The notes beneath the pieces are model-generated. The model made no database searches, had not been told where the DNA came from, and was given only the letters and a program-made list of their open reading frames with translations. The position numbers were made by a program, and so were the translations under genes. This document shows positions 39,109 to 53,554 of a stretch of 64,000 bases of DNA, piece after piece (position 1 is the stretch's first letter; every line of letters begins with the position of its first letter). Where the stretch lies: assembly GCA_963817895.1 (NCBI GenBank), contig CAWFQB010000004.1:864001-928000 (forward strand), in the 5' to 3' direction. Source of the DNA: an uncultured Chthonomonadaceae bacterium. GTDB lineage: Bacteria > Armatimonadota > Chthonomonadetes > Chthonomonadales > Chthonomonadaceae.

Positions 39109-39127
39109 TGCTATACTGTTTGTCATG
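39109..39127 (+). promoter_or_regulatory. Extended -10 promoter 7 nt before ATG (leaderless-type)
   Basis: TG-C-TATACT-GTTTGTC-ATG; no SD sequence. Confidence 0.55.
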
Positions 39128-40127
39128 GATGAACGAGAATTCACTCGGCGCAAACGGGAAGGGTGGGAGCAGCTTGCCGCCCTTGTGGAAAAGGCCAACA
39201 GCAAGAGCGGCGTCAAAGCCTTGAGTCGGGAGGAACTGCTCGCGCTTGGCCCTTTATATCGGCGCGCGTGTTCCGATCTGGCCTACGCCCGCGTACACGC
39301 CGTCAGCGCAGACCTTGTCGCCCAACTGAACGGGCTTGTCGGGCAGACACACGCTTTACTGTATGAGGCCGAACATACGGGCCGCGCGTTGCGCTCGGTT
39401 GTGGATTTTTACCTGTACGATTTCCCCGCGCTGCTGCAAAAACACATCCGCTATTTTCTCGCTGCGTTTGGCCTGACTGTTATCGGAGCGTTTTACGCCT
39501 ACTGGTTTGTGCAAACCCATCCCGCGCAGGAGGAGGTTTTCATTCCTCCGCAGTTCAAGAAATCGTTTGACATCTGGAAAAAAGGCGGCGGCGCGTCCGC
39601 GTCCAGCACGGAGTTTTCCGGCGCGTTGTTCGCCAACAATCAGCGTGTCGGCCTGATCGCTTACGCGACGGGCGTGGTTGCGGGCGTACCAACTTGTTAC
39701 ATGCTGTTTGAAAACGGGGCCACGTCTGGGCGCGTTATCCGCTGTGGTCACGCAGTCGCATCAACACGCGAATTTATGGCCCGGTATTCTGCCGCACGGC
39801 ATTGCCGAACTGACGGCAATTTTCATCTGTGGCGGGGCGGGTATGTTGCTTGGCGGTTCGCTGCTGTTGCCCGGTCGCTATCGCCGTTCCGAGTCGTTCC
39901 GTAAAGCAGGGTTGGAGTCTATCTATCTGGTGCTTGGCACGATTCCGTTGTTTGTATTCGCGGGCATTGTGGAGGGCATGTTCTCGCATCTTGGCTTGCC
40001 GGGTTGGGTGCGACTCGCCTTTGCCGGCATGAACGGCGTCCTCTGGTACACATATCTGTTTCTGCCGCGCCGCAAGCCGGAAGAAGCCGCCGTTCCCAAT
40101 ATTACGCGGAACTTGACTGCCGCGTAG
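39125..40127 (+). CDS. Stage II sporulation protein M family membrane protein (frameshift near 39725)
   Basis: F...R...W..L, LYR....DLAYAR, NN..V, ILPHG..EL.AI, LF..AG.VEG. Confidence 0.85.
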
Positions 40128-40142
40128 CGCGTAAGTTCAGAA

Positions 40143-40252
40143 GTCAGGTTGTTAGGTTGTTAGTCGTCAGGCACTCGGCTTATCGCATAAACACACGTTG
40201 GTCTTTTGTATTGTCCTAACAACCTAACAACCTGACAACCTAACAACCTAAC
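40143..40252. repeat. Intergenic octamer-repeat hairpin (GTTAGGTT / AACCTAAC)
   Basis: GTYAGGTT units on the left; five CCTRACAA-type units on the right. Confidence 0.85.
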
Positions 40253-40267
40253 CCCCGGAGCTTTTGC

Positions 40268-42252
40268 ATGTCCCAATCCGAACCGGATGGCTGTCCGCGC
40301 GATACGCTTGCGCAACTGCGCCAACAATATCCTGACGCCCCCTTTCTGGCGTTGGGGCAAACCGTTTTTTGGGACGAGCCGGTCAAGGCCGCGTTGCGGA
40401 AGCTGCTGGATGACAATCATCTCGGCGGGCACATGGTGTTGGGCGTTCACGATACGGATTATTTCGCCAAAGCGCACTTGCCCCATGCCCGGCAGGGACG
40501 TTTCGCGCTCATGCCCCATAACGACGGCAGCACCAAATCGCTGTGGTCGGCGGCAGGCGAAATCTCTACCCTGTTCGGCAGCGAAACGTTTCCCACGCGG
40601 CAGGATTACGTGCGCTGCGGCGTCGCGTTTCGCAAGCTGGCGCGCGCGCATCCCGGACGGGCCGCAGGCGTTTCTGGACGCAATGACCGAAGCGTGGGGC
40701 TGGCGCGGACTGGTGTATACCGGTTCGCGTGACCTGATTGTGCATTATCTGCCTCTGCGGGAGGTCGGCGACGGCCTGCTGGAAATGCTGAAGTGGGGAT
40801 TTGAGAACGCGCTGGCGCAGGTTGTTCCCGGCTGCTGTCAGGACGAGGCGAAAAACGTTACGGAAACCATTGCTCGGCTGGTGTCAGCAGTTCCGCGCAG
40901 GCGCAACCCGGAGAAAACCCTTTCCGACCTGTTCCAGTATTTGCTGCCTCTGTTTTATACCATGCTGCTCGGCGCGGACCCGCAAAATATCAGCGTGGAT
41001 TGCACCACGAACCTGCTGCGCCTGACCCCGCAAACCGCGCATCTGCCCCGCTTCCGCTTTGTAGATTTGTTTCTGAACCCCGCAACCCGCGAACATCGCG
41101 CTTCACGCCTATAATACCGCGCTGGCCGGTTCAGAAATTTATACGCTTGACCGCTTTGGCGCGGGCGCATTGCCATTCGATGTGATTTTGCCGGAACGCG
41201 GGCGGGGAACCCTGCGCGTGACGCCGCGCGTGTTGTTCGTGGAAACACGCCAACCCGTCGCCATCGGCCTGAAAAAGCCGGTCGAATCCGTACAGGAATT
41301 GGCAGAAATCCTGAACCGCAAATTGGGCGATCAGGTAACGCTTGTCGGTAAAGCCGTATCCCTCGTTTCCATGCTGGCGCAGGAATTTATCTTTGTTTTT
41401 AGCGAAGAGGGTTCCCTGTACGTGCGCCGAACCCGGCAGATGAACGACATGCTGGCCGCGCAGGGCATCTCATTGGACATGCGCCCTATACTGCGGATGC
41501 GCTATCATACGTGGGACGCGCTTGCTGTGGGCAAATCCACGCTAACTCCCACGCCGCACCTTGCCGCCACATTTGGACAGCCGACAATTACGACCCCGGA
41601 GTTCGCGTCACAATGGAAGCAGGTAGTTCAGGAGCAGCGGCAATTATGTGAGCAGATCGCGCTGGTACATAAGCCCTCAGAACTGCTGCAATTTCTACAG
41701 GCGCGGAGTGGGGGAGAAGATTGGGAAGAGCAGGCGCGCGTTTATTCGCAGGCCCGACAACTCCTCTGCGAATATCGGGAACAGACGGCCGCCATTCAGC
41801 AGCAGGTTGACGCGCTGTACGCCACGCGAAAACAACTAAAACAACGCAGCCGGGACACGCAGCAGGCGCAGGGCGAACATTTTCGGAGCGTAACCGAATG
41901 GACGCCCGATGAGATTGCCCGCCGCGCCGCCTACGAGGGTGAAACCAGAGACTTGATGCTTCAAAAGCGCGTCGTATGCAGCGAAATCAATAGCCTGAAA
42001 CAGCGCCGCTACTCCATTGAGCGCGGCCCGGACGTTGAACAGACGCGCGAAAGATTGGCGCAGATCGAAACGCGAGCGGAAATGGCCCGCCTGCAACTGG
42101 TACGCAACGCCCTGCTCACCACTGAGGGCCTGACCCATACCAATCATCGTCCGTCCGTCTGGTGGCTGCCCATTCTCGACCCATCCGGCGACTGGTTCCG
42201 CCGCCTCGCCGATACGGCGGAAGTGTATACGGAGCCGTTGCTGTCACAGTAG
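40268..42252 (+). CDS. Conserved-looking hypothetical protein with C-terminal coiled coil (frameshifted)
   Basis: ORFs 40268, 40287 and 41170 join; motifs [35 protein letters not shown]. Confidence 0.6.
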
Positions 42253-42337
42253 GGAGTAGGTTGTAGGGGTAGGAAAAGCAATGTTCAACTTGTGAATTGC
42301 CCTACTCCCTACGCCCTGCGCCCTACTCCCTACTCCC
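42250..42337. repeat. Intergenic heptamer-repeat hairpin
   Basis: TAGGGAGTAGGTTGTAGGGGTAGG ... CCTACTCCCTACGCCCTGCGCCCTACTCCCTACTCCC; spans exactly from the TAG stop to the ATG. Confidence 0.85.
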
Positions 42338-44211
42338 ATGATTTCTCTACCCGACCATATTCCAGATTTACGCCGCTTGTACGGGTTCCGCGCCGTGATT
42401 GTGCTGCTGTTGAGCATGATTGGGCTGCGGCTATGGTACCTGCAGCTGGTGAAGAACGCGGAACTGGCGGAACTGTCGCAGACGCAGAGCGTGAAAGCTG
42501 ATCCGCCGGGTGGCGCCGCGCGGCGTGATTATGGATTCAAAGGGCGAGATTCTGGCGACAAGCCGCGCCAAGTTCGTCGTTTCGCTTTCCCCCGATGACG
42601 CGAAAAAACACCCGGAAACGCTGACGCGACTGGCTCTGCTGCTTGGCGCGAATGAGGATGACCTGCGCGACAAGGTTCTGCCCACGCGCATTGGCCCGAA
42701 CGGAAAAAAGATCGCGTTGCGGGGCAAGCCGTTCGACCCTGTTCCGCTGGATCGGGATGTCAGTATCAAAGTATTGTCGCAAATTGAGGAGCAGCGTCTG
42801 GATTTACCGGGCGTGATTGTCAGCCGCGACCCGGTGCGTTATTATAAAGATAATATGACGTGCGCCCATCTGCTTGGCGATACCGGCCTGATTAATGAAG
42901 AGCAGATGCGCAATCCAAAATACGCCAGTTATCATGGCGGCGATTACGTGGGGCGCGACGGACTGGAAGCGCATTACGAGCAGGAATTGCGCGGGGAGGA
43001 TGGTGGCGAGAATGTGACCGTAGACGCGCGGGGCCGGACGCTGCGCCGCGTATCGGAGAATACAGCCCCGCGCGGGGCATGGGCTGAAACTGGCGCTGGA
43101 TTTGAGTTTGCAGAAAGCGGCCTACAATCTGCTCAAGGAGCAGTTTGATGGCAAAAACCGGCGTAATCCCGGTTCGCATACAGGCGCGATTGTGGCTCTT
43201 GATCCCGCAAACGGCGAAGTGCTGGCGCTGGTCAGTATGCCCTCCTACGATCTGAACACGTTTGGGGAGAAATACGACGCGCTGAATGGCGATAAAACAA
43301 TGCCGCTGTTCAATCGGGCGACAAGCGCCGCGCTGCCATGCGGTTCGCCATTCAAATTGATTACGGCTGCGGCAGGATTGGAAATCGGGCAAAGCGAGTC
43401 AGTACACGACCTATTTTTGTCCCGGCTACAAGCGAATTGGCAACCGCATTTTCCATTGTGACGAGGTGCATCGCAATACGGCCTTTGAAAAAGCCATTGG
43501 CGCGTCGTGCAATGTGTATTTTTATACTGTCGGGCGAAGATGTGGGGCCGGACGCGCTGGCGGAATGGGCAAAGCGATTCGGATTGGGCAAAACGACGGG
43601 CATTGATCTGCCTTCTGGCAGGCCCGGTTTCATACCCACGCCTGCGTGGAAGCGCAAAGTTGCCAGCGACCCGGCCAATAAAATCTGGTATCCCGGCGAA
43701 ACAGCCAACATGTCCATCGGGCAGGGGGATTTGCAGGTAACGCCCATTCAACTGGCGAACTATACGGCAGCCCTTGCCAATGGCGGCACACTCTGGCGTC
43801 CGCATCTGGTACGCGCCATTGTGGATACGTCCGGGCCGAAGCCGACGGTCACGCAAACAATTGCCCCCGAAGCGCGGGGCGAATTGGGCTTGAAGCCCGA
43901 AAACTTGAACCTGATTGTGGCGGGGATGCGCAAAACTATGCAAAAGGGCGGCACGGCGTTCGCGTCCGCTATTCCCGGTTTGGACATCGCGGGCAAAACC
44001 GGCACGGTGGAAATTAAAAAGCAGCGTAATTCCGTGTTCGTGTGCTTTGCCGGCCTGCCCGGAGCAAAAGCCGAGTATCGCGCTTGCGGTTCTCGTCGAG
44101 GGCGGCGGCTACGGTTCCGAAACCGCCGCGCCCATCGCCCGCCGCCTGCTGGCGCAATATTTCCATATTCCCATCAGTCCCGTAGAAACCGTCGGCAACG
44201 CGCGGGATTAA
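42338..44211 (+). CDS. mrdA: Penicillin-binding protein 2 (several frameshifts)
   Basis: RLWYLQ, APRG.I.D..G, G..GLE..YE..LRG.DG, GSPFK (SxxK), W.PGET...SIGQG, IAGKTGT. Confidence 0.88.
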
Positions 44212-44229
44212 ACCGCTGAACTGAGAAAA

Positions 44230-44274: not shown

Positions 44275-45507
44275 ATGTTGCAAAATAAGCCTGTTGTGGA
44301 AGAGAATGAACAGCAAGTTGTGTCACGGCGCGGCTTTGTCGCAGGTGTTGCGGCGGCAGTCACATTGCCCCTGTTGACGCAAACGGAAGCGGGCGCGCAA
44401 ACCCCCGTATTACAGCCGGATCGAACCATACGGCCTGCGCCTGCCCAAACCGCCGCCAAACTGATTACCCGGCAGCGGGAACCGGAAAATCTGGAATTCA
44501 ACTTTGCCACGCTGGATAATTTTCTCACGCCCAACGACCGCTTTTACGTGCGCAGCCACTTTGCCACGCCCAATCTTGACGCCGATAAATGGCAGTTGCG
44601 GATAGAGGGAGCCGTAGAGCGTCCGTTTACCATTTCTTACGCTGAATTGCGGCAGATGCCGTCGCGTAAATTACAAACCACGCTGGAGTGCGCCGGGAAC
44701 GGACGGGTTGCGCTGGTTCCTCCTGCAAACGGCGTTCAATGGGATTTGGGCGGGGTCAGCACGGCGGAATGGACGGGCGTGCCGCTGTCTACGCTGCTGG
44801 CGCGGGCCGGTATTCGCCCCGAAGCCGTAGACGTGGTTCTAGAGGGAGCGGATACAGGAGAAATCAAAACTACGCCCCGACCGGCGGGAGCGATCCACTA
44901 TGCCCGCAGCCTGCCATTGGAACGGGCGCGGCAACAGGACGTGATTTTAGCGACAAAAATGAACGGCAGCGATCTGCCGATTTCGCACGGTTTTCCTGTT
45001 CGCGCTATTGTGCCGGGTTGGTACGGCATGGCGTCCGTGAAGTGGCTGACGCGCATTTTGGTGCTGCCGCAAGCGTTTCAGGGCTATTTCCAGACCATTG
45101 ATTACGCGATATGGGAGCGGCAAGAAGGGGTTGCGCGGCGTGTTCCCATAACCAGTATGCAGGTGAAAGCGAGTATTGCGCGTCCCTCTTTCCGGGAAAT
45201 GGTTCGCGCCGGGAGCGCGTATCGTATTTACGGCGCGGCATGGGCGGGTGACAGCGCGGTGACAAAGGTGGAGATCAGCGTGAACGGCGGCCAATCGTGG
45301 CAGCCCGCCCGCCTGAACAATCTGCCGGTTCCTTACACATGGCGCTTCTGGGAGTACGAATGGCGTGTCCCCATGCAGGCAGGACGCTACGCGATTATGG
45401 CGCGGGCAACGGACGCGAAGGGCAACACACAGCCCATGCAGCGCGACGCCGACCGCGAAAACTACATGATCAACCATGTTGTACCGGTGGAAGTGGAAGT
45501 CAGTTGA
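44275..45507 (+). CDS. Tat-exported sulfite oxidase family molybdoenzyme
   Basis: SRRGFV Tat motif, FYVRSH, LECAGN, HGFPVR.IVPGWYG..SVKWL, ARATD..G. Confidence 0.92.
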   Translation: MLQNKPVVEENEQQVVSRRGFVAGVAAAVTLPLLTQTEAGAQTPVLQPDRTIRPAPAQTAAKLITRQREPENLEFNFATLDNFLTPNDRFYVRSHFATPNLDADKWQLRIEGAVERPFTISYAELRQMPSRKLQTTLECAGNGRVALVPPANGVQWDLGGVSTAEWTGVPLSTLLARAGIRPEAVDVVLEGADTGEIKTTPRPAGAIHYARSLPLERARQQDVILATKMNGSDLPISHGFPVRAIVPGWYGMASVKWLTRILVLPQAFQGYFQTIDYAIWERQEGVARRVPITSMQVKASIARPSFREMVRAGSAYRIYGAAWAGDSAVTKVEISVNGGQSWQPARLNNLPVPYTWRFWEYEWRVPMQAGRYAIMARATDAKGNTQPMQRDADRENYMINHVVPVEVEVS

Positions 45508-45582
45508 GATAGGAGATACAAGATACGAGATACGAGTAGCCCAGACTTGTATCTCGTATCTTGTATCTCCTATCTCCTATCT
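45506..45582. repeat. Intergenic heptamer-repeat hairpin (GAGATAS / STATCTC)
   Basis: GAGATAGGAGATACAAGATACGAGATACGAG pairs with CTTGTATCTCGTATCTTGTATCTCCTATCTC. Confidence 0.9.
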
Positions 45583-45586
45583 AATC

Positions 45587-46879
45587 ATGACCCTGAACAT
45601 ACAGCAAAACGGAATAGTGTTTCGGCAGGAGGACGGGAATGTGACCATTCATCGTCCCGGCAAGAGCGGCAACGGCGGCGTGGAAATCGAGGTTGGCGAG
45701 GAGCTTGCTGAAGCATGGCGGCTGGCGACGGGCGATGTTGTGGAGGGCGTGACGGAAGCCTTTGACAATGTGCAGGCCGTTTCGGAGGCCAGCCCGGAGT
45801 GGTACGAACAGTACGATTTTCAGGATGAGGAGCAGCGCGACGAACCCAACTATGCGCGGGGCGGTTCGGTTCCCGCATGGCTCATAGAACACGTCCTGCC
45901 AAGCGAGCGGCTTGTATCCATTATCCGCGTCAACGGCCTTGAACAGGAGGACGCCGACGAACGCCCGTTTCCGCGCAAGCGTAACAACGCCGAGCGGAGT
46001 TCGCCGGAGCGTCGTCTTTCCCTCGCGGTTCGTTCCTCCGATACGACGGGCAGGATGCTGGATTTTGCCGCCACACTGGGCGCGGGCTGTGTCGGCATCA
46101 TACATGGCCCTCATGCCAGTGGCCTGACTCGCACTCTGGAATCTGTTGTTGCGGGCGTAAGCGTGAACGCCCCGGATGTAGTTGTCCTCGTGCTGCTGTT
46201 GCGGGCGCGAGGCGAAGAGATGACGGAGTGGCGGCGCAAGTTTCCCAACGCCGATGTCGTGGTGTGTTCCTCGTCCTCATCTCCATCCGTAAGCGCGGCA
46301 GAGCGGACGGTGCGGCTGGCCGATATGACGCTGGCCTGTGCGCAGCGGCAAACGGAATTGGGGCGGCACGTCCTGTTGGCGGTTGACTCGCTCACGGGCT
46401 TGTGGGGCGCGATGCTGGAAGCGGAACACGCGGATACGCAGCGCGAAGCGGACCTGTCGAATGCCCGCTACCGAATGCGCGAATGGGTACAGAAGGCGGG
46501 CAATTTCGGCGGGCCGGGGCTGCTCGGCTCGGCTTTGGGCGGCTCGCTGACGCTGGCAGGAACGATGTGGCAGCAGCCCGTAGACGCGGAAGCGGAAGAG
46601 GAACGCGACATTCACCCGCATTTGCGCCTGATGGAGCATCTCCTGCACGAAACCAACTGGCGCGTTCCGCTGTCCCCGGTATTGATGCGCGAACGGCTGT
46701 TTCCCGCCATTGACACGGCGCGTTGCCTGTCACAACCGGAAGAAAAACTGCTGCCGCCCGACGAATACGAGAAACTGCTGGCGGCGCGGGCAAAACTTGT
46801 TCGACTGGACTTGCTTGCTCGCCATAATGCGCTTCTGGATACGCTCGAACTCGACCCAGGACAACAGCCAACTGGTTGA
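45587..46879 (+). CDS. Divergent paralogue of transcription termination factor Rho, predicted inactive
   Basis: Colinear with Rho: L.TGD.V.G, R.LD..A.LG.G, ELG..V.L..DS.T, GSLT..GT, R.FPAID; catalytic residues are replaced. Confidence 0.8.
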   Translation: MTLNIQQNGIVFRQEDGNVTIHRPGKSGNGGVEIEVGEELAEAWRLATGDVVEGVTEAFDNVQAVSEASPEWYEQYDFQDEEQRDEPNYARGGSVPAWLIEHVLPSERLVSIIRVNGLEQEDADERPFPRKRNNAERSSPERRLSLAVRSSDTTGRMLDFAATLGAGCVGIIHGPHASGLTRTLESVVAGVSVNAPDVVVLVLLLRARGEEMTEWRRKFPNADVVVCSSSSSPSVSAAERTVRLADMTLACAQRQTELGRHVLLAVDSLTGLWGAMLEAEHADTQREADLSNARYRMREWVQKAGNFGGPGLLGSALGGSLTLAGTMWQQPVDAEAEEERDIHPHLRLMEHLLHETNWRVPLSPVLMRERLFPAIDTARCLSQPEEKLLPPDEYEKLLAARAKLVRLDLLARHNALLDTLELDPGQQPTG

Positions 46880-46902
46880 TGTCTTATAGAGGGAGAGGAC
46901 AC

Positions 46903-47292
46903 ATGCGTAACCTGTCTGTCTGGTGGTCAACACGAAAACCCCGGCATTTATCAACGCCTGCGGCTCTCTTAATTCTATTCGTCTGTGTGCCTGTAGTGTT
47001 CTATCCGATTGTAGCGCTTCAAAGTTACTTGTATGCGCGCGAACACACGCACAAATGGCACGAGGCAAGTTTGTTAAGCGCGGAAAAGCAATACTATACA
47101 GCGCATGGCGTTTTTGTATTTGGTACGGATGCGGAACTGCTTCCGCTCATGACAAGCAGCATGACGGAAAACCCCGGCATTTGTCCACGCGGCGGCCATC
47201 ATTCTGTGATAAAATATAGCACGGGTGAAATACGAGTTCGGTGCAGTTTGAAGGAGGGGCGAGGTTCCGTCCTGAAGCCGCCGGGCAAGTGA
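46903..47292 (+). CDS. Small pilin/pseudopilin-like membrane-anchored protein
   Basis: One TM helix, A..QY...HG.F, CP.GG.....CS disulfide-loop-like C-terminus. Confidence 0.55.
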   Translation: MRNLSVWWSTRKPRHLSTPAALLILFVCVPVVFYPIVALQSYLYAREHTHKWHEASLLSAEKQYYTAHGVFVFGTDAELLPLMTSSMTENPGICPRGGHHSVIKYSTGEIRVRCSLKEGRGSVLKPPGK

Positions 47293-47333
47293 TTTTCCGA
47301 AAGCAAACGGATTGGAGTAGTAATACAGGATTC

Positions 47334-47735
47334 ATGGCAGCAAGAAAGAAGTATGGACGTATTCGCAATGCGCGGCAGAACGCCGCGCCGTTTCGCGCGC
47401 TGCTGTTGGTCGTGGCGCTGGGCGCGATTATGAGAATATCGCTTGCCGGCAGCGTCCATGACATGCAGCGAATGTCCTGCGATGGAATGCGCTACTATCT
47501 GGCGGGCGCGGAACAGACCTATCAGCGCAGGAACGGCCACTTTATTGTGGGGGGCGAGGACGCTTTGCAGGAACTGGTAAACGCCCACGCGATGCGGGCT
47601 TTGCCGCAGTGTAAAGCGGGCGGGCATTATGAGGCGGTTGCCAACGCCGACGGTTCCATCACCATCCATTGCAGCCTGCCCGAACACGACAAAGATCATG
47701 GCGTCACCCGTTCCGTCTGGCGTCACAGGCATTAG
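47334..47735 (+). CDS. Small pilin/pseudopilin-like protein (paralogue of the upstream gene)
   Basis: One TM helix, C......L..AEQ.Y...NG.F, P.C.AGG.Y.......CS..EH. Confidence 0.6.
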   Translation: MAARKKYGRIRNARQNAAPFRALLLVVALGAIMRISLAGSVHDMQRMSCDGMRYYLAGAEQTYQRRNGHFIVGGEDALQELVNAHAMRALPQCKAGGHYEAVANADGSITIHCSLPEHDKDHGVTRSVWRHRH

Positions 47736-47826: not shown

Positions 47827-49526
47827 ATGTTACGTACGCTTTCCGTCCGAAATTTTGCCATCATTGACCGGCTTGATCTGGAATTCAGCGCGGGCTTTAA
47901 CGTGCTGACCGGCGAAACCGGGGCGGGCAAATCCATTCTCATGGACGCGCTGAACCTGATTTTAGGGGCGCGGCGCCGGGGCTGAAATGGTGCGCGGCGG
48001 CGCGGACCGGGCTACGATTGACGCCGTGTTCGATGTGCCTCCCGATTCGCATTTGCTGGGTATCATCGAGCGCATGGGCTATGAACTGGAAGACGACCAG
48101 TTGTTTCTGGCGCGTGAAGTATCCGCAGCCGGAAAGTCTACGTGCCGTATTGCGGGACGCCCCGCAACGGTATCGCAGTTGAAAGAGTTGGGCGACTGGC
48201 TGGTAGACCTGCACGGACAGCACGAGCATCAATCCCTGCTGGCGGTAGCGCGGCATCTGGATATGCTGGACGATTGGGGCGGCAAGCCCATTGCCGGACT
48301 GCGCGGACAGGTGGCGGAAGCGTATCAGGCCGTACAGAAATTGCGGCGGGAAAAGGAAGAGTTGGAACGCGACGCGAGGGAACGCGCCCATCTGCTCGAC
48401 CTGTACCAGTTTCAGGTGAAAGAGATAACGGAGGCCAAACTCGCGCCGGGTGAAGATGAAGAACTGGCAACCGAATACAAGCGCGTCGCCAATGCGCAAA
48501 AACTGGCCGAGTTCGGCGGGGGCGGCGGCGGAAGCCCTGACGGGCGGCGACAAGGGCGGCGGAGTGCTGGAAGCGCTTTCCCTTGCCCTGCGAACGCTGG
48601 AAGAGGCCGCGAGTTTGGATGACGCGCTAACTCCTGCATTAGAAGTCGTCCGGTCCGCAACATACGAACTGACCGAAACCGAGCGCGATTTAATCCGCTA
48701 TCAGGATACCGTTGAGTTCAACCCGGAGCGGCTGGAACAGATCGAGGAACGTCTGGAACTGCTGCGCAACCTGAAGCGCAAATACGGCGACAGCATTGAA
48801 GAGATTGTACAGTACGGGAAAGATACCGCCGCGAAACTGGATACGCTGACCAATTCCGAGGAGCGCGGGGCGCAACTGGACGCGGAAATCAAGAAGGGCA
48901 GCAAGAGACTGCGCGAATTGTGCGCCCAACTCAGCGACCTGCGCTGCAAAGCCGCGTTGGAGTTCCAAACCATCACGCTGACGGAATTGCGCGATCTGGC
49001 AATGGAAAAAACACGCTTTGAAGTGCACATCGCGCAGGGCGAACCGACCGCGAAAGGCGCGGACAAGGTAGAGTTTCTGATCGCCACCAATCCCGGCGAA
49101 CCTCTGCGTTCCCTTGCTAAAGTGGCGTCGGGCGGCGAAATTTCCCGCGTGATGCTTGCCATCAAGTCGGCGCTTGCGCGACAGGAACCCCTTCCGACAA
49201 TGGTTTTTGATGAGATAGATGTGGGCGTGGGCGGGCGCACGGCAAGCAAAATCGCGGAAAAACTGGCAACTCTGGCCCAAAACGCGCAGGTATTGTGCAT
49301 CACCCACCTTGCGCAGCTTGCCAGTAAGGGACAGCGGCATCTGTACATTGAAAAGAACGTGACAGGCGACCGCACCAATGTCACCGTCGTTCCCCTAACT
49401 CCCGAACAGCGCGTCACGGAAGTAGCTCGCATGATCGGCGGCGAAGGCATCACGGACGCCGTACTCCAACACGCCCGCGAAATGCTCACCACGTCAGTAG
49501 AAAAAGCAAAGACTAGCCGCAAATAA
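47827..49526 (+). CDS. recN: DNA repair protein RecN (two frameshifts)
   Basis: [34 protein letters not shown]...L.K.ASGGE.SR, FDEID.GVGG, ITHL.Q.A. Confidence 0.95.
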
Positions 49527-52423: not shown

Positions 52424-53554
52424 ATGACAGCAGAACCTTTAGACATACAAACAGAGAGACAAATGGAGATACAAGCCTATCTGCGCGGAAGCGGTATGCT
52501 GGAAGAACTGGCGCGCGATTTGGCAATTCGCCATACCCGGCATCCTGAGTACCTCAATCTGATACTGTTCAAGTACGACCAGATCAACAGCCCGATGGAC
52601 AACGCGCTCGTGCAGGAGTGTCGGGGTTTGATTCTGAATGAAACAGCAAACTGGCGCGTTGTCGCCCGCGCTTACAGCAAATTTTTCAACTATGGCGAAC
52701 CGAACGCGCCCGCGATAGAGTGGGCAACCGCCCGCGTTCAGGAGAAGGTAGACGGTACGCTATGCATCTTCTACCATTATAATAATCTGTGGCACGTCGC
52801 CACAACGGGAACGCCGGATGCTGGCGGCAGAGTGCATAACGGCGAACGCATTTTCCGCGACCTGATCTGGGAAACGGCGCGAAATTATCAACTGGAACTC
52901 CTTTCGTCCGCGCACTGCTATCTATTTGAACTGACAAGCCCCTACAACCGCGTTGTTGTGCCGCATGAGCAGTCGAGTCTCACATTGTTGGGGATACGGC
53001 AAACGGACAATGGTGACTGGATTGCATTGGAACAGGCGTCTCAATACGTGAGCGGTTCTGTTCCGGTTGTGCGGGAGTTCGCCTTTGATTCTCTGGCGGC
53101 TCTGTTTGCGTCTCTGGAAAACATCAATCCTCTGGAACAGGAGGGCTATGTGGTTGTGGATGGCGCAGACAATCGTATCAAAGTGAAACATCCACGCTAC
53201 GTTGCCCTGCATCTGCTCAAAGAATCGTTCAATGTCCGGGCTTACATTGAGGTATTGCGGGCAGGCGAAACGCCCGAATTGCTCACTTACTTTCCCGAAA
53301 TCGGCGCGGAATACGCCCCCATTCGCGCGGCTTACGAATCGCTGGCGGAAGAGATTGACAGCGATTATGCTCGCCTACAGCCTCTTTCCACTCAGAAAGA
53401 GTTCGCGCAATCCGCGCTTAAAACACGCTGTTCCGCCGCCCTGTTTGCAATCCGCGCGGGCGATTGCCGCGATGCGCGCGACTATCTGAGCCGCCGCGCT
53501 TCCGTTGTATCTGTCATGCGCCTGCTTGGATTGAAGGAGGAACCGCAGACTTAG
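52424..53554 (+). CDS. T4 Rnl1-family ATP-dependent RNA ligase
   Basis: ECRGLIL, KFFN..E, motif I EKVDGT, FEL.SP.N..VV, EGYVV, R.KVK...Y. Confidence 0.85.
   Translation: MTAEPLDIQTERQMEIQAYLRGSGMLEELARDLAIRHTRHPEYLNLILFKYDQINSPMDNALVQECRGLILNETANWRVVARAYSKFFNYGEPNAPAIEWATARVQEKVDGTLCIFYHYNNLWHVATTGTPDAGGRVHNGERIFRDLIWETARNYQLELLSSAHCYLFELTSPYNRVVVPHEQSSLTLLGIRQTDNGDWIALEQASQYVSGSVPVVREFAFDSLAALFASLENINPLEQEGYVVVDGADNRIKVKHPRYVALHLLKESFNVRAYIEVLRAGETPELLTYFPEIGAEYAPIRAAYESLAEEIDSDYARLQPLSTQKEFAQSALKTRCSAALFAIRAGDCRDARDYLSRRASVVSVMRLLGLKEEPQT

Follow-up and report, generated by a model that had tools for sequence, protein, structure and literature searches.

The locus examined here raises the question of whether an open reading frame (ORF) that resembles the transcription termination factor Rho, and that seems to have lost the residues with which Rho hydrolyzes ATP and binds RNA, encodes a selected protein and, if so, of what kind. 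The window, the whole stretch of DNA that was analysed, comprises 64,000 nucleotides from an uncultured Chthonomonadaceae bacterium and carries 430 codons without a stop at positions 45587 to 46879 of the plus strand (P0001; 430 aa as assembled). The first-pass annotation had read this ORF as a full-length, catalytically dead Rho paralogue. A profile-to-profile comparison of 81 members of the paralogue family with 73 intact Rhos bore out the likeness. The alignment ran from residue 8 to the end (probability 100; E value of 1.8e-40), interrupted by a gap of roughly 45 columns where an acidic insert lies, and the motifs DGNVTIH, GPHASGLT, LLLRARGEE, DSLT, GSLT, RLFPAID, and CLSQPEE fell where they had been placed by eye. 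Rho models did match the ORF in HMM searches, although at 75 to 91 bits, far under their cut-offs: the score against TIGR00767 was 89.2 bits (cut-off, 509.45), below the range of functional Rho, and that against NF041509 (paralog_Rho2) was 75.5 bits (cut-off, 628). The only Pfam match was the ATP-synthase nucleotide-binding domain, and all 11 sequence matches in the PDB were Rho.

An AlphaFold2 model of the protein (mean pLDDT, 91.4) superposed on residues 51 to 416 of Rho, with a best Z score of 40.5 and an rmsd of 2.4 over 349 residues. The best 23 structure matches were all Rho (Z scores of 34 to 40.5), other ATPases reached at most 26.5, and Foldseek was consistent with the Rho fold. The protein has both the OB fold and the RecA-type ATPase fold of Rho. 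It is not full length, however, since the N-terminal helical bundle is missing: the model starts at Rho residue 51, none of the 81 members matched the Rho_N domain, and fewer than 10 residues lie ahead of position 1 in 96 of the 102 full-length members. The paralogue is not the only rho of its genome. A canonical rho, for which the first reading had suggested looking, is present on another contig (C14); it scored 615 bits, above the cut-off, has intact motifs, and encodes a Rho that is 27% identical to the paralogue. The genome also has nusG, and Rof was not found in this 81%-complete assembly.

A protein search returned 143 matches. The best 120 of them were 45 to 92% identical to the query, and wherever an organism was named it belonged to the Chthonomonadaceae or Chthonomonadales. 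The database labels among the matches listed were "transcription termination factor Rho" or "hypothetical," so that the family has been hidden by misannotation. Scanning species genomes turned up 32 loci, of which 31 came from Chthonomonas, Chthonomonadaceae, or Chthonomonadales and one from an "Armatimonadota bacterium." Strong matches (E < 1e-60) were present in 31 of 61 Chthonomonadales genomes, none with internal stops; by family, the carriers were 21 of 36, 9 of 22, and 0 of 2 genomes, plus the genome studied here. Of 45 well-completed genomes of the order, 24 yielded no paralogue. Outside the order it occurred in 0 of 267 other Armatimonadota genomes (phylum sample of 301; five candidates scored per genome), because an intact short Rho was the only match there at 1e-40. 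When 1.84 billion representatives were searched with a profile, 16 clusters of the family came back, several of them fragments, at 166 to 690 bits; Rho-type proteins followed, starting at 159 bits and running downward. None of 53 viral pattern matches was confirmed as a copy, and no fusion was found among 8000 candidates of 892 to 2545 aa, which is weak evidence, lengths of 754 to 891 aa having been left out.

To measure selection, dN/dS was calculated by the Nei-Gojobori method. In the four closest pairs, three of them from one genus, the paralogue had values of 0.12 to 0.15, versus 0.012 to 0.022 for rho in the same pairs. Values for distant pairs (up to 0.67 among the 279 of 435 pairs for which pS was < 0.7) were left aside because they are likely inflated through synonymous saturation. 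Across 22 genomes having both genes, paralogue and rho distances were correlated (Spearman coefficient, 0.73), and both trees divided two families alike. The paralogue does have orthologues, and they evolve under purifying selection, not the neutral decay that the first-pass annotation had offered as a refutation. These comparisons indicate a gene that is inherited vertically, lost repeatedly, and not decaying, and the members form a discrete, selected Chthonomonadales family. ORFs within 6 kb were clustered across 33 loci, and no neighbour recurred in more than six; the mrdA/recN context seen in the window is confined to the genus and one further locus, and linkage to rho was not observed. 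Median genome size was 5.7 Mb for 21 carriers and 4.1 Mb for 24 noncarriers, related genomes not being independent in this comparison. In three genomes of the order that were at least 90% complete (G018, at 99%, G027, and G050), neither a canonical rho nor the paralogue was found, possibly owing to loss of rho or to assembly gaps.

Next, residues were counted over 121 paralogue sequences (totals of 118 to 121 per column), with 109 intact Rhos as the comparison set. The Escherichia coli Rho positions R269, K336, and Met341 are those that we assume to correspond. The numbers K184, E211, R212, R366, P180, L320, F355, K326, and Y80 follow passages of 10.1101/069773, 10.1101/2021.06.25.449899, PMC12360218, and PMC1950744. 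The ATP site proved to be altered throughout the family. In the P-loop (GxHxxGLTR; 46106 to 46132, plus strand), G174 occurs in 119 of 119 members and H176 in 118 of 119, with T/S181 retained; the Walker A Lys position holds Leu in 112, Met in 5, Val in 1, and Arg in 1 of 119, and Lys in none. In the segment RARGEExTxWR (46202 to 46234, plus strand), the position of the catalytic Glu is occupied by Ala (87), Pro (26), Ser (5), or Thr (2) in 120 members and never by Glu, an Asp of Rho has become Arg (R206, 112/120), and W215 is new. The Arg valve residue R208 is found in 120 of 120 members, together with E210, E211, and T213. Walker B (DSLT; 46385 to 46396, plus strand) has D267 in 121 of 121, the next Arg of Rho being replaced by Gly or Ala. 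The family thus has the Walker B Asp and the Arg valve of Rho and lacks its Walker A Lys and catalytic Glu, as well as the R269 and K336 equivalents, all four of which every one of the 109 intact Rhos has. At the Arg-finger region (RCLSQPEE; 46721 to 46744, plus strand), position 383 is Gln in 46 and Arg in 42 of 119 members. The loss of the Arg finger first noticed is therefore true of the window protein, which has Q383, and is not a family-wide property.

The RNA-binding surfaces were changed as well. The OB fold (aa 8 to 125; 45608 to 45961, plus strand) retains its GxVxxxxDG and LxxGDxVxG framework, with the RNP1 Phe pair and the Tyr80 equivalent turned into small or acidic residues; the family has neither the primary RNA-site aromatics nor the Q- and R-loop secondary site of Rho. 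The acidic insert reported earlier in this domain, roughly 45 aa long, is indeed there, at residues 59 to 105 (45761 to 45901, plus strand), where the model has low confidence (pLDDT, about 60 to 73), and it turned out to vary within the family. Since it is shorter than 25 residues in 16 of the 102 full-length members, it is not essential, and we ruled it out as the key functional part; the motif [DE][QE]xD[EQD]P is found in 49 of the 102. Between the domains, a rebuilt connector (RPxPRxRxxxERxxP; 45962 to 46006, plus strand) stands in place of FxxLTPxxP of Rho, and its residues R126, P127, R132, E136, and R137 are invariant or nearly so. The rebuilt Q-loop (WxxMLExExADxQxxADxxxAR; 46403 to 46468, plus strand) is acidic, with a median net charge of -4 (range, -6 to -1) versus +2 in Rho over spans of different lengths. 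It is followed by a conserved Gly-rich insert (GxFxGxGxLGxxLGG; 46499 to 46543, plus strand) ahead of GSLT and then by W328 (120/121), at the position of Rho Leu320, and an extended acidic R-loop (DxEAEEExxxHPHLR; 46568 to 46627, plus strand), whose median net charge is -5 versus -2 in Rho, again over spans differing in length. Both loops were modelled as ordered (pLDDT, 88 to 95).

Residues that the family retains are G179, T/S181, D267, R208, E210, E211, T213, R254, E257, E350, and R370, along with GGSLT, the R-x-F/Y-P motif, and the adenine-stacking aromatic (Tyr in 67 and Phe in 50 of 118). Of the 283 anchored columns, 40 reach an identity of 90% or more in paralogues and in Rho alike, many of them on the nucleotide face, and 115 positions are at least 90% conserved within the paralogue family. 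Gained and almost invariant are G174, H176 (at the P180 position), R206, W215, W273, W328, W358, and HP-HLR; R182 (101/119) and R206 are new conserved basic residues, the latter absent from the two most divergent members, which otherwise keep the family motifs. The C-terminal helices are retained, with R401 and L404 conserved, and are otherwise among the most variable parts. The loss of RNA-binding and ATPase residues described for the single ORF thus extends, for the Walker A Lys, the catalytic Glu, and the primary-site aromatics, to the whole family. The most conserved new features, the acidic Q- and R-loops together with the invariant replacements in the catalytic pocket, had escaped that description. 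With such losses under selection, the pseudoenzyme reading is well supported: the protein is predicted to be dead as an ATPase and is very probably a selected, noncatalytic derivative of Rho.

What could such a protein do? Rho is regarded as a homohexamer. Our preferred reading, which we put forward tentatively, is that the paralogue serves as a pseudo-subunit, docking on canonical Rho and damping termination; a noncatalytic subunit is likely because the residues of the ATP motor and the RNA grip are lost and acidic loops stand in their place. The protein would neither hydrolyze ATP nor bind RNA in the manner of Rho. Its valve helix (R208, E210, E211, and T213), R254/E257, E350, R370, and the P-loop backbone, all retained, would allow it to pack on a subunit of Rho, perhaps while holding a nucleotide that is not turned over. 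The acidic loops would point toward the central channel, repelling RNA or mimicking it, and the bicyclomycin pocket, by which ring closure is controlled, would be filled by H176, L180, and W328. A single such subunit could keep the ring open or interrupt the ATPase cycle, so that its expression would lower Rho-dependent termination. The nucleotide face is the most faithfully kept part of the paralogue, which supports docking; the residues that we assign to interfaces are presumably placed as in the structure of Rho.

Several published observations bear on this proposal. According to 10.1101/069773 and 10.1101/2021.06.25.449899, P180, K184, E211, and L320 of Rho lie along a pocket that governs the closing of the ring, this pocket collapses as the ring closes, and at Leu320 even Met slows the motor. 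All four residues are replaced in the paralogue. Ring closure needs RNA to engage the Q- and R-loops, as described in PMC12360218 and PMC1950744. Hetero-hexamers have been raised as a possibility for second Rho copies (PMC11347177). ADP and (p)ppGpp are bound in the nucleotide site of Rho (PMC11829017), so a nucleotide-sensing role is possible whether the paralogue joins the Rho ring or assembles with itself. In Clostridioides difficile, defective alleles of rho behave as dominant negatives (PMC7446863); these would be near-identical subunits, unlike the paralogue at 27% identity, which limits the precedent. Other results speak against docking. Twelve columns are fixed differently in paralogues and Rho, and 77 columns conserved in Rho are relaxed, including those of the connector and finger face, as would be expected had the paralogue left the Rho interface; the invariant changes on both subunit faces would suit a self-assembling protein equally well. 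The gene is unlinked to rho, and the congruence of the two trees reflects only vertical descent. All 21 carriers that were at least 90% complete also had rho above the cut-off, a co-occurrence that is uninformative because 52 of the 61 genomes of the order have it. Carried further, and rather less probably, the Chthonomonadales Rho ring might be a regulated hetero-oligomer with a noncatalytic subunit derived from Rho itself, whose loops mimic RNA and whose Trp/His pocket imitates bicyclomycin.

A possible, though doubtful, alternative is that the protein forms a homo-oligomer independently of Rho, with coevolved faces, and binds some new ligand (a metal, for example, or a basic protein or signalling nucleotide) through its acidic channel loops and a putative His cluster (H176, H343, H345, and H351). 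The new invariant residues in the pocket and on both faces (ER137 of the connector, W215, and W358) point this way, as do the ordered loops, the extent of conservation within the family, and its very long stem branch. However, no gene for a ligand or partner was seen, with the neighbourhood not conserved across the 33 loci, and the valve helix, identical to that of Rho, fits either model. Improbable is a third explanation, in which the paralogue acts outside the ring as an acidic decoy for Rho partners, either the NusG C-terminal domain or RNA polymerase. NusG and omega bind the C-terminal helices of Rho, according to 10.1101/2022.08.29.505764. These helices are kept in the paralogue along with R401 and L404, the family has a median pI of 4.9, and nusG is at hand, but conservation is strongest in the pocket and the channel loops, not in the helices. 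Still more improbable is a rewired, active NTPase with R182, R206, or H176 standing in for the Walker A Lys, the base being some other acid. The Gly pattern of the P-loop, T181, D267, R208, E211, the adenine-stacking aromatic, and the conserved R182 and R206 would be consistent with it; against it are the four losses from the ATP site, an Arg finger missing in 77 of 119 members, the Trp at the Leu320 position, and the absence of R206 from the two members that diverge most. Almost nothing remains in favour of the reading that the gene is a duplicate in decay or an artefact of assembly: dN/dS is about 10-fold above that of rho, the gene was not found in more than half of the well-completed genomes of the order, and its tail is frameshifted, but 31 stop-free genome matches, purifying selection, and family motifs that stay invariant despite the wide range of identities refute it, and frameshifts also affect the housekeeping neighbours.

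The paralogue was then compared with known systems. Its OB and RecA domains superpose on those of canonical Rho (TIGR00767, PRK09376; PDB entries 3ICE, 5JJL, and 8HSJ), and the Walker B Asp and Arg valve are shared; it differs in lacking the helical bundle, the Walker A Lys, the catalytic Glu, and the primary-site aromatics and in having longer, acidic Q- and R-loops. Like the Group B/Type 4 short Rho (NF041509), it is a second copy without the N-terminal domain; unlike it, it has lost the catalytic and bicyclomycin-pocket residues, which the short second Rhos of Moreira et al. 2024 (PMC11347177) retain. The supplement of that study describes Rho-like proteins of Rubrobacteria and Thermoleophilia as degenerate Rho descendants, in which, as in the paralogue, the catalytic Glu is missing; the name Chthonomonas was not found there. 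Rof, Psu, and YihE bind Rho at or across its subunits and thereby keep it open or inactive (PMC12360218). A job of this kind is also proposed for the paralogue, although these inhibitors have unrelated folds and bind externally, whereas the paralogue is a Rho homologue. The noncatalytic alpha subunit of F1-ATPase, a paralogous subunit within this ATPase superfamily, has likewise lost the catalytic Glu; it retains the Walker A Lys and supplies the Arg finger in every case. The paralogue, in contrast, has no Walker A Lys, and its Arg finger is optional.

Full-text searches covering few subscription papers found no account of the family, which is apparently an undescribed variant of Rho. Second Rho copies so far described keep their catalytic residues; here, a selected paralogue found across an order has its motor and RNA-binding elements swapped for new invariant residues, which suggests a nonmotor use of the Rho fold. 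Co-assembly with Rho would add a new control of termination and would put the proposed hetero-hexamer within reach of a test with two purified proteins. As a hetero-oligomer, it would constitute an endogenous Rho inhibitor made from the fold of Rho and a natural probe of the number of active subunits required. If it does not co-assemble, it would represent a new acidic-pore oligomer. The family occurs in a single order, itself known chiefly through metagenomes, and its function is inferred only.

As to origin, a quick tree of 67 rows put the paralogue among short Rhos (SH-aLRT, 95) on a very long branch, and an AU test found grouping with the order's own rho to be as likely (p-AU, 0.554). Among 231 intact Rhos, the best BLAST match was a short Armatimonadota-type Rho for 84 of 107 members, a Trp at the Met341 position is common to the paralogue and 25 of 27 such Rhos, and the nearest language-model clusters were Rhos of 361 to 395 aa. 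HMM scores failed to separate short from full-length Rho as the source. With the AU test undecided and the HMM scores uninformative, descent from group B, an idea formed by eye, is not claimed. A tie between the paralogue and the Walker A variant AQPK of canonical Rho was ruled out, the variant being present also in two genomes without the paralogue (G005 and G022). In Armatimonadota from outside the Chthonomonadales (L050, L153, L175 to L178, and L180 to L184), intact short second Rhos come in two or more kinds, of which one has GTGNW and another has APPRSGKT and GTGNC. Six divergent Rho-like proteins (P0333, P0330, P0335, P0365, P0312, and P0334) keep the Walker A Lys and do not fit the DERPEE pattern, P0333 also having degenerate Q-loop and finger regions; they possibly represent further paralogue families.

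The frame described earlier as uninterrupted has no stop across its 430 codons, yet its last 10 codons or so are out of frame. A one-base shift in the tail (46846 to 46889, plus strand) gives a family-like end, ...DNSQLVDVL, with a stop at 46887 to 46889; this end resembles those of the close relatives P0002, P0004, and P0393, and the window carries one base more here than L051. At 39125 to 44219 and 47987 to 49526, mrdA/pbp2, recN, and two other genes are broken across frames in the window and whole in the relatives L051, L052, and L068. Frequent single-base assembly errors are likely in this contig, and because housekeeping genes such as recN and mrdA are split in the same manner, the tail frameshift is likely assembly noise.

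Directly 5' of the paralogue start lies a palindromic element (45506 to 45576) made of GAGATAC/GAGATAG heptamers and their reverse complements, which had 508 short BLAST matches in the genome; L051 has another heptamer repeat at the same site. Since the element is abundant genome-wide and absent from the two closest genomes, it does not belong to the conserved unit. No clear ribosome-binding site was seen ahead of the ATG, and a promoter scan of the 5' region gave no signal above chance. The gene upstream (44275 to 45507) encodes a Tat-type molybdoprotein of the sulfite oxidase family and is not conserved beside the paralogue. Downstream, two small ORFs (46903 to 47292 and 47241 to 47735) carry a CxxGGH motif as well as a hydrophobic helix at the N terminus and look pilin-like by eye; neither had a Pfam or NCBIfam match above the cut-off. 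A short motif starting GAAAACCCCGGCATTT occurs at 46934 and 47168, and in L051 it immediately follows the stop. Farther on, shortly before mutS, an ORF at 52424 to 53554 resembles by eye a T4-type RNA ligase, with an EKVDG motif.
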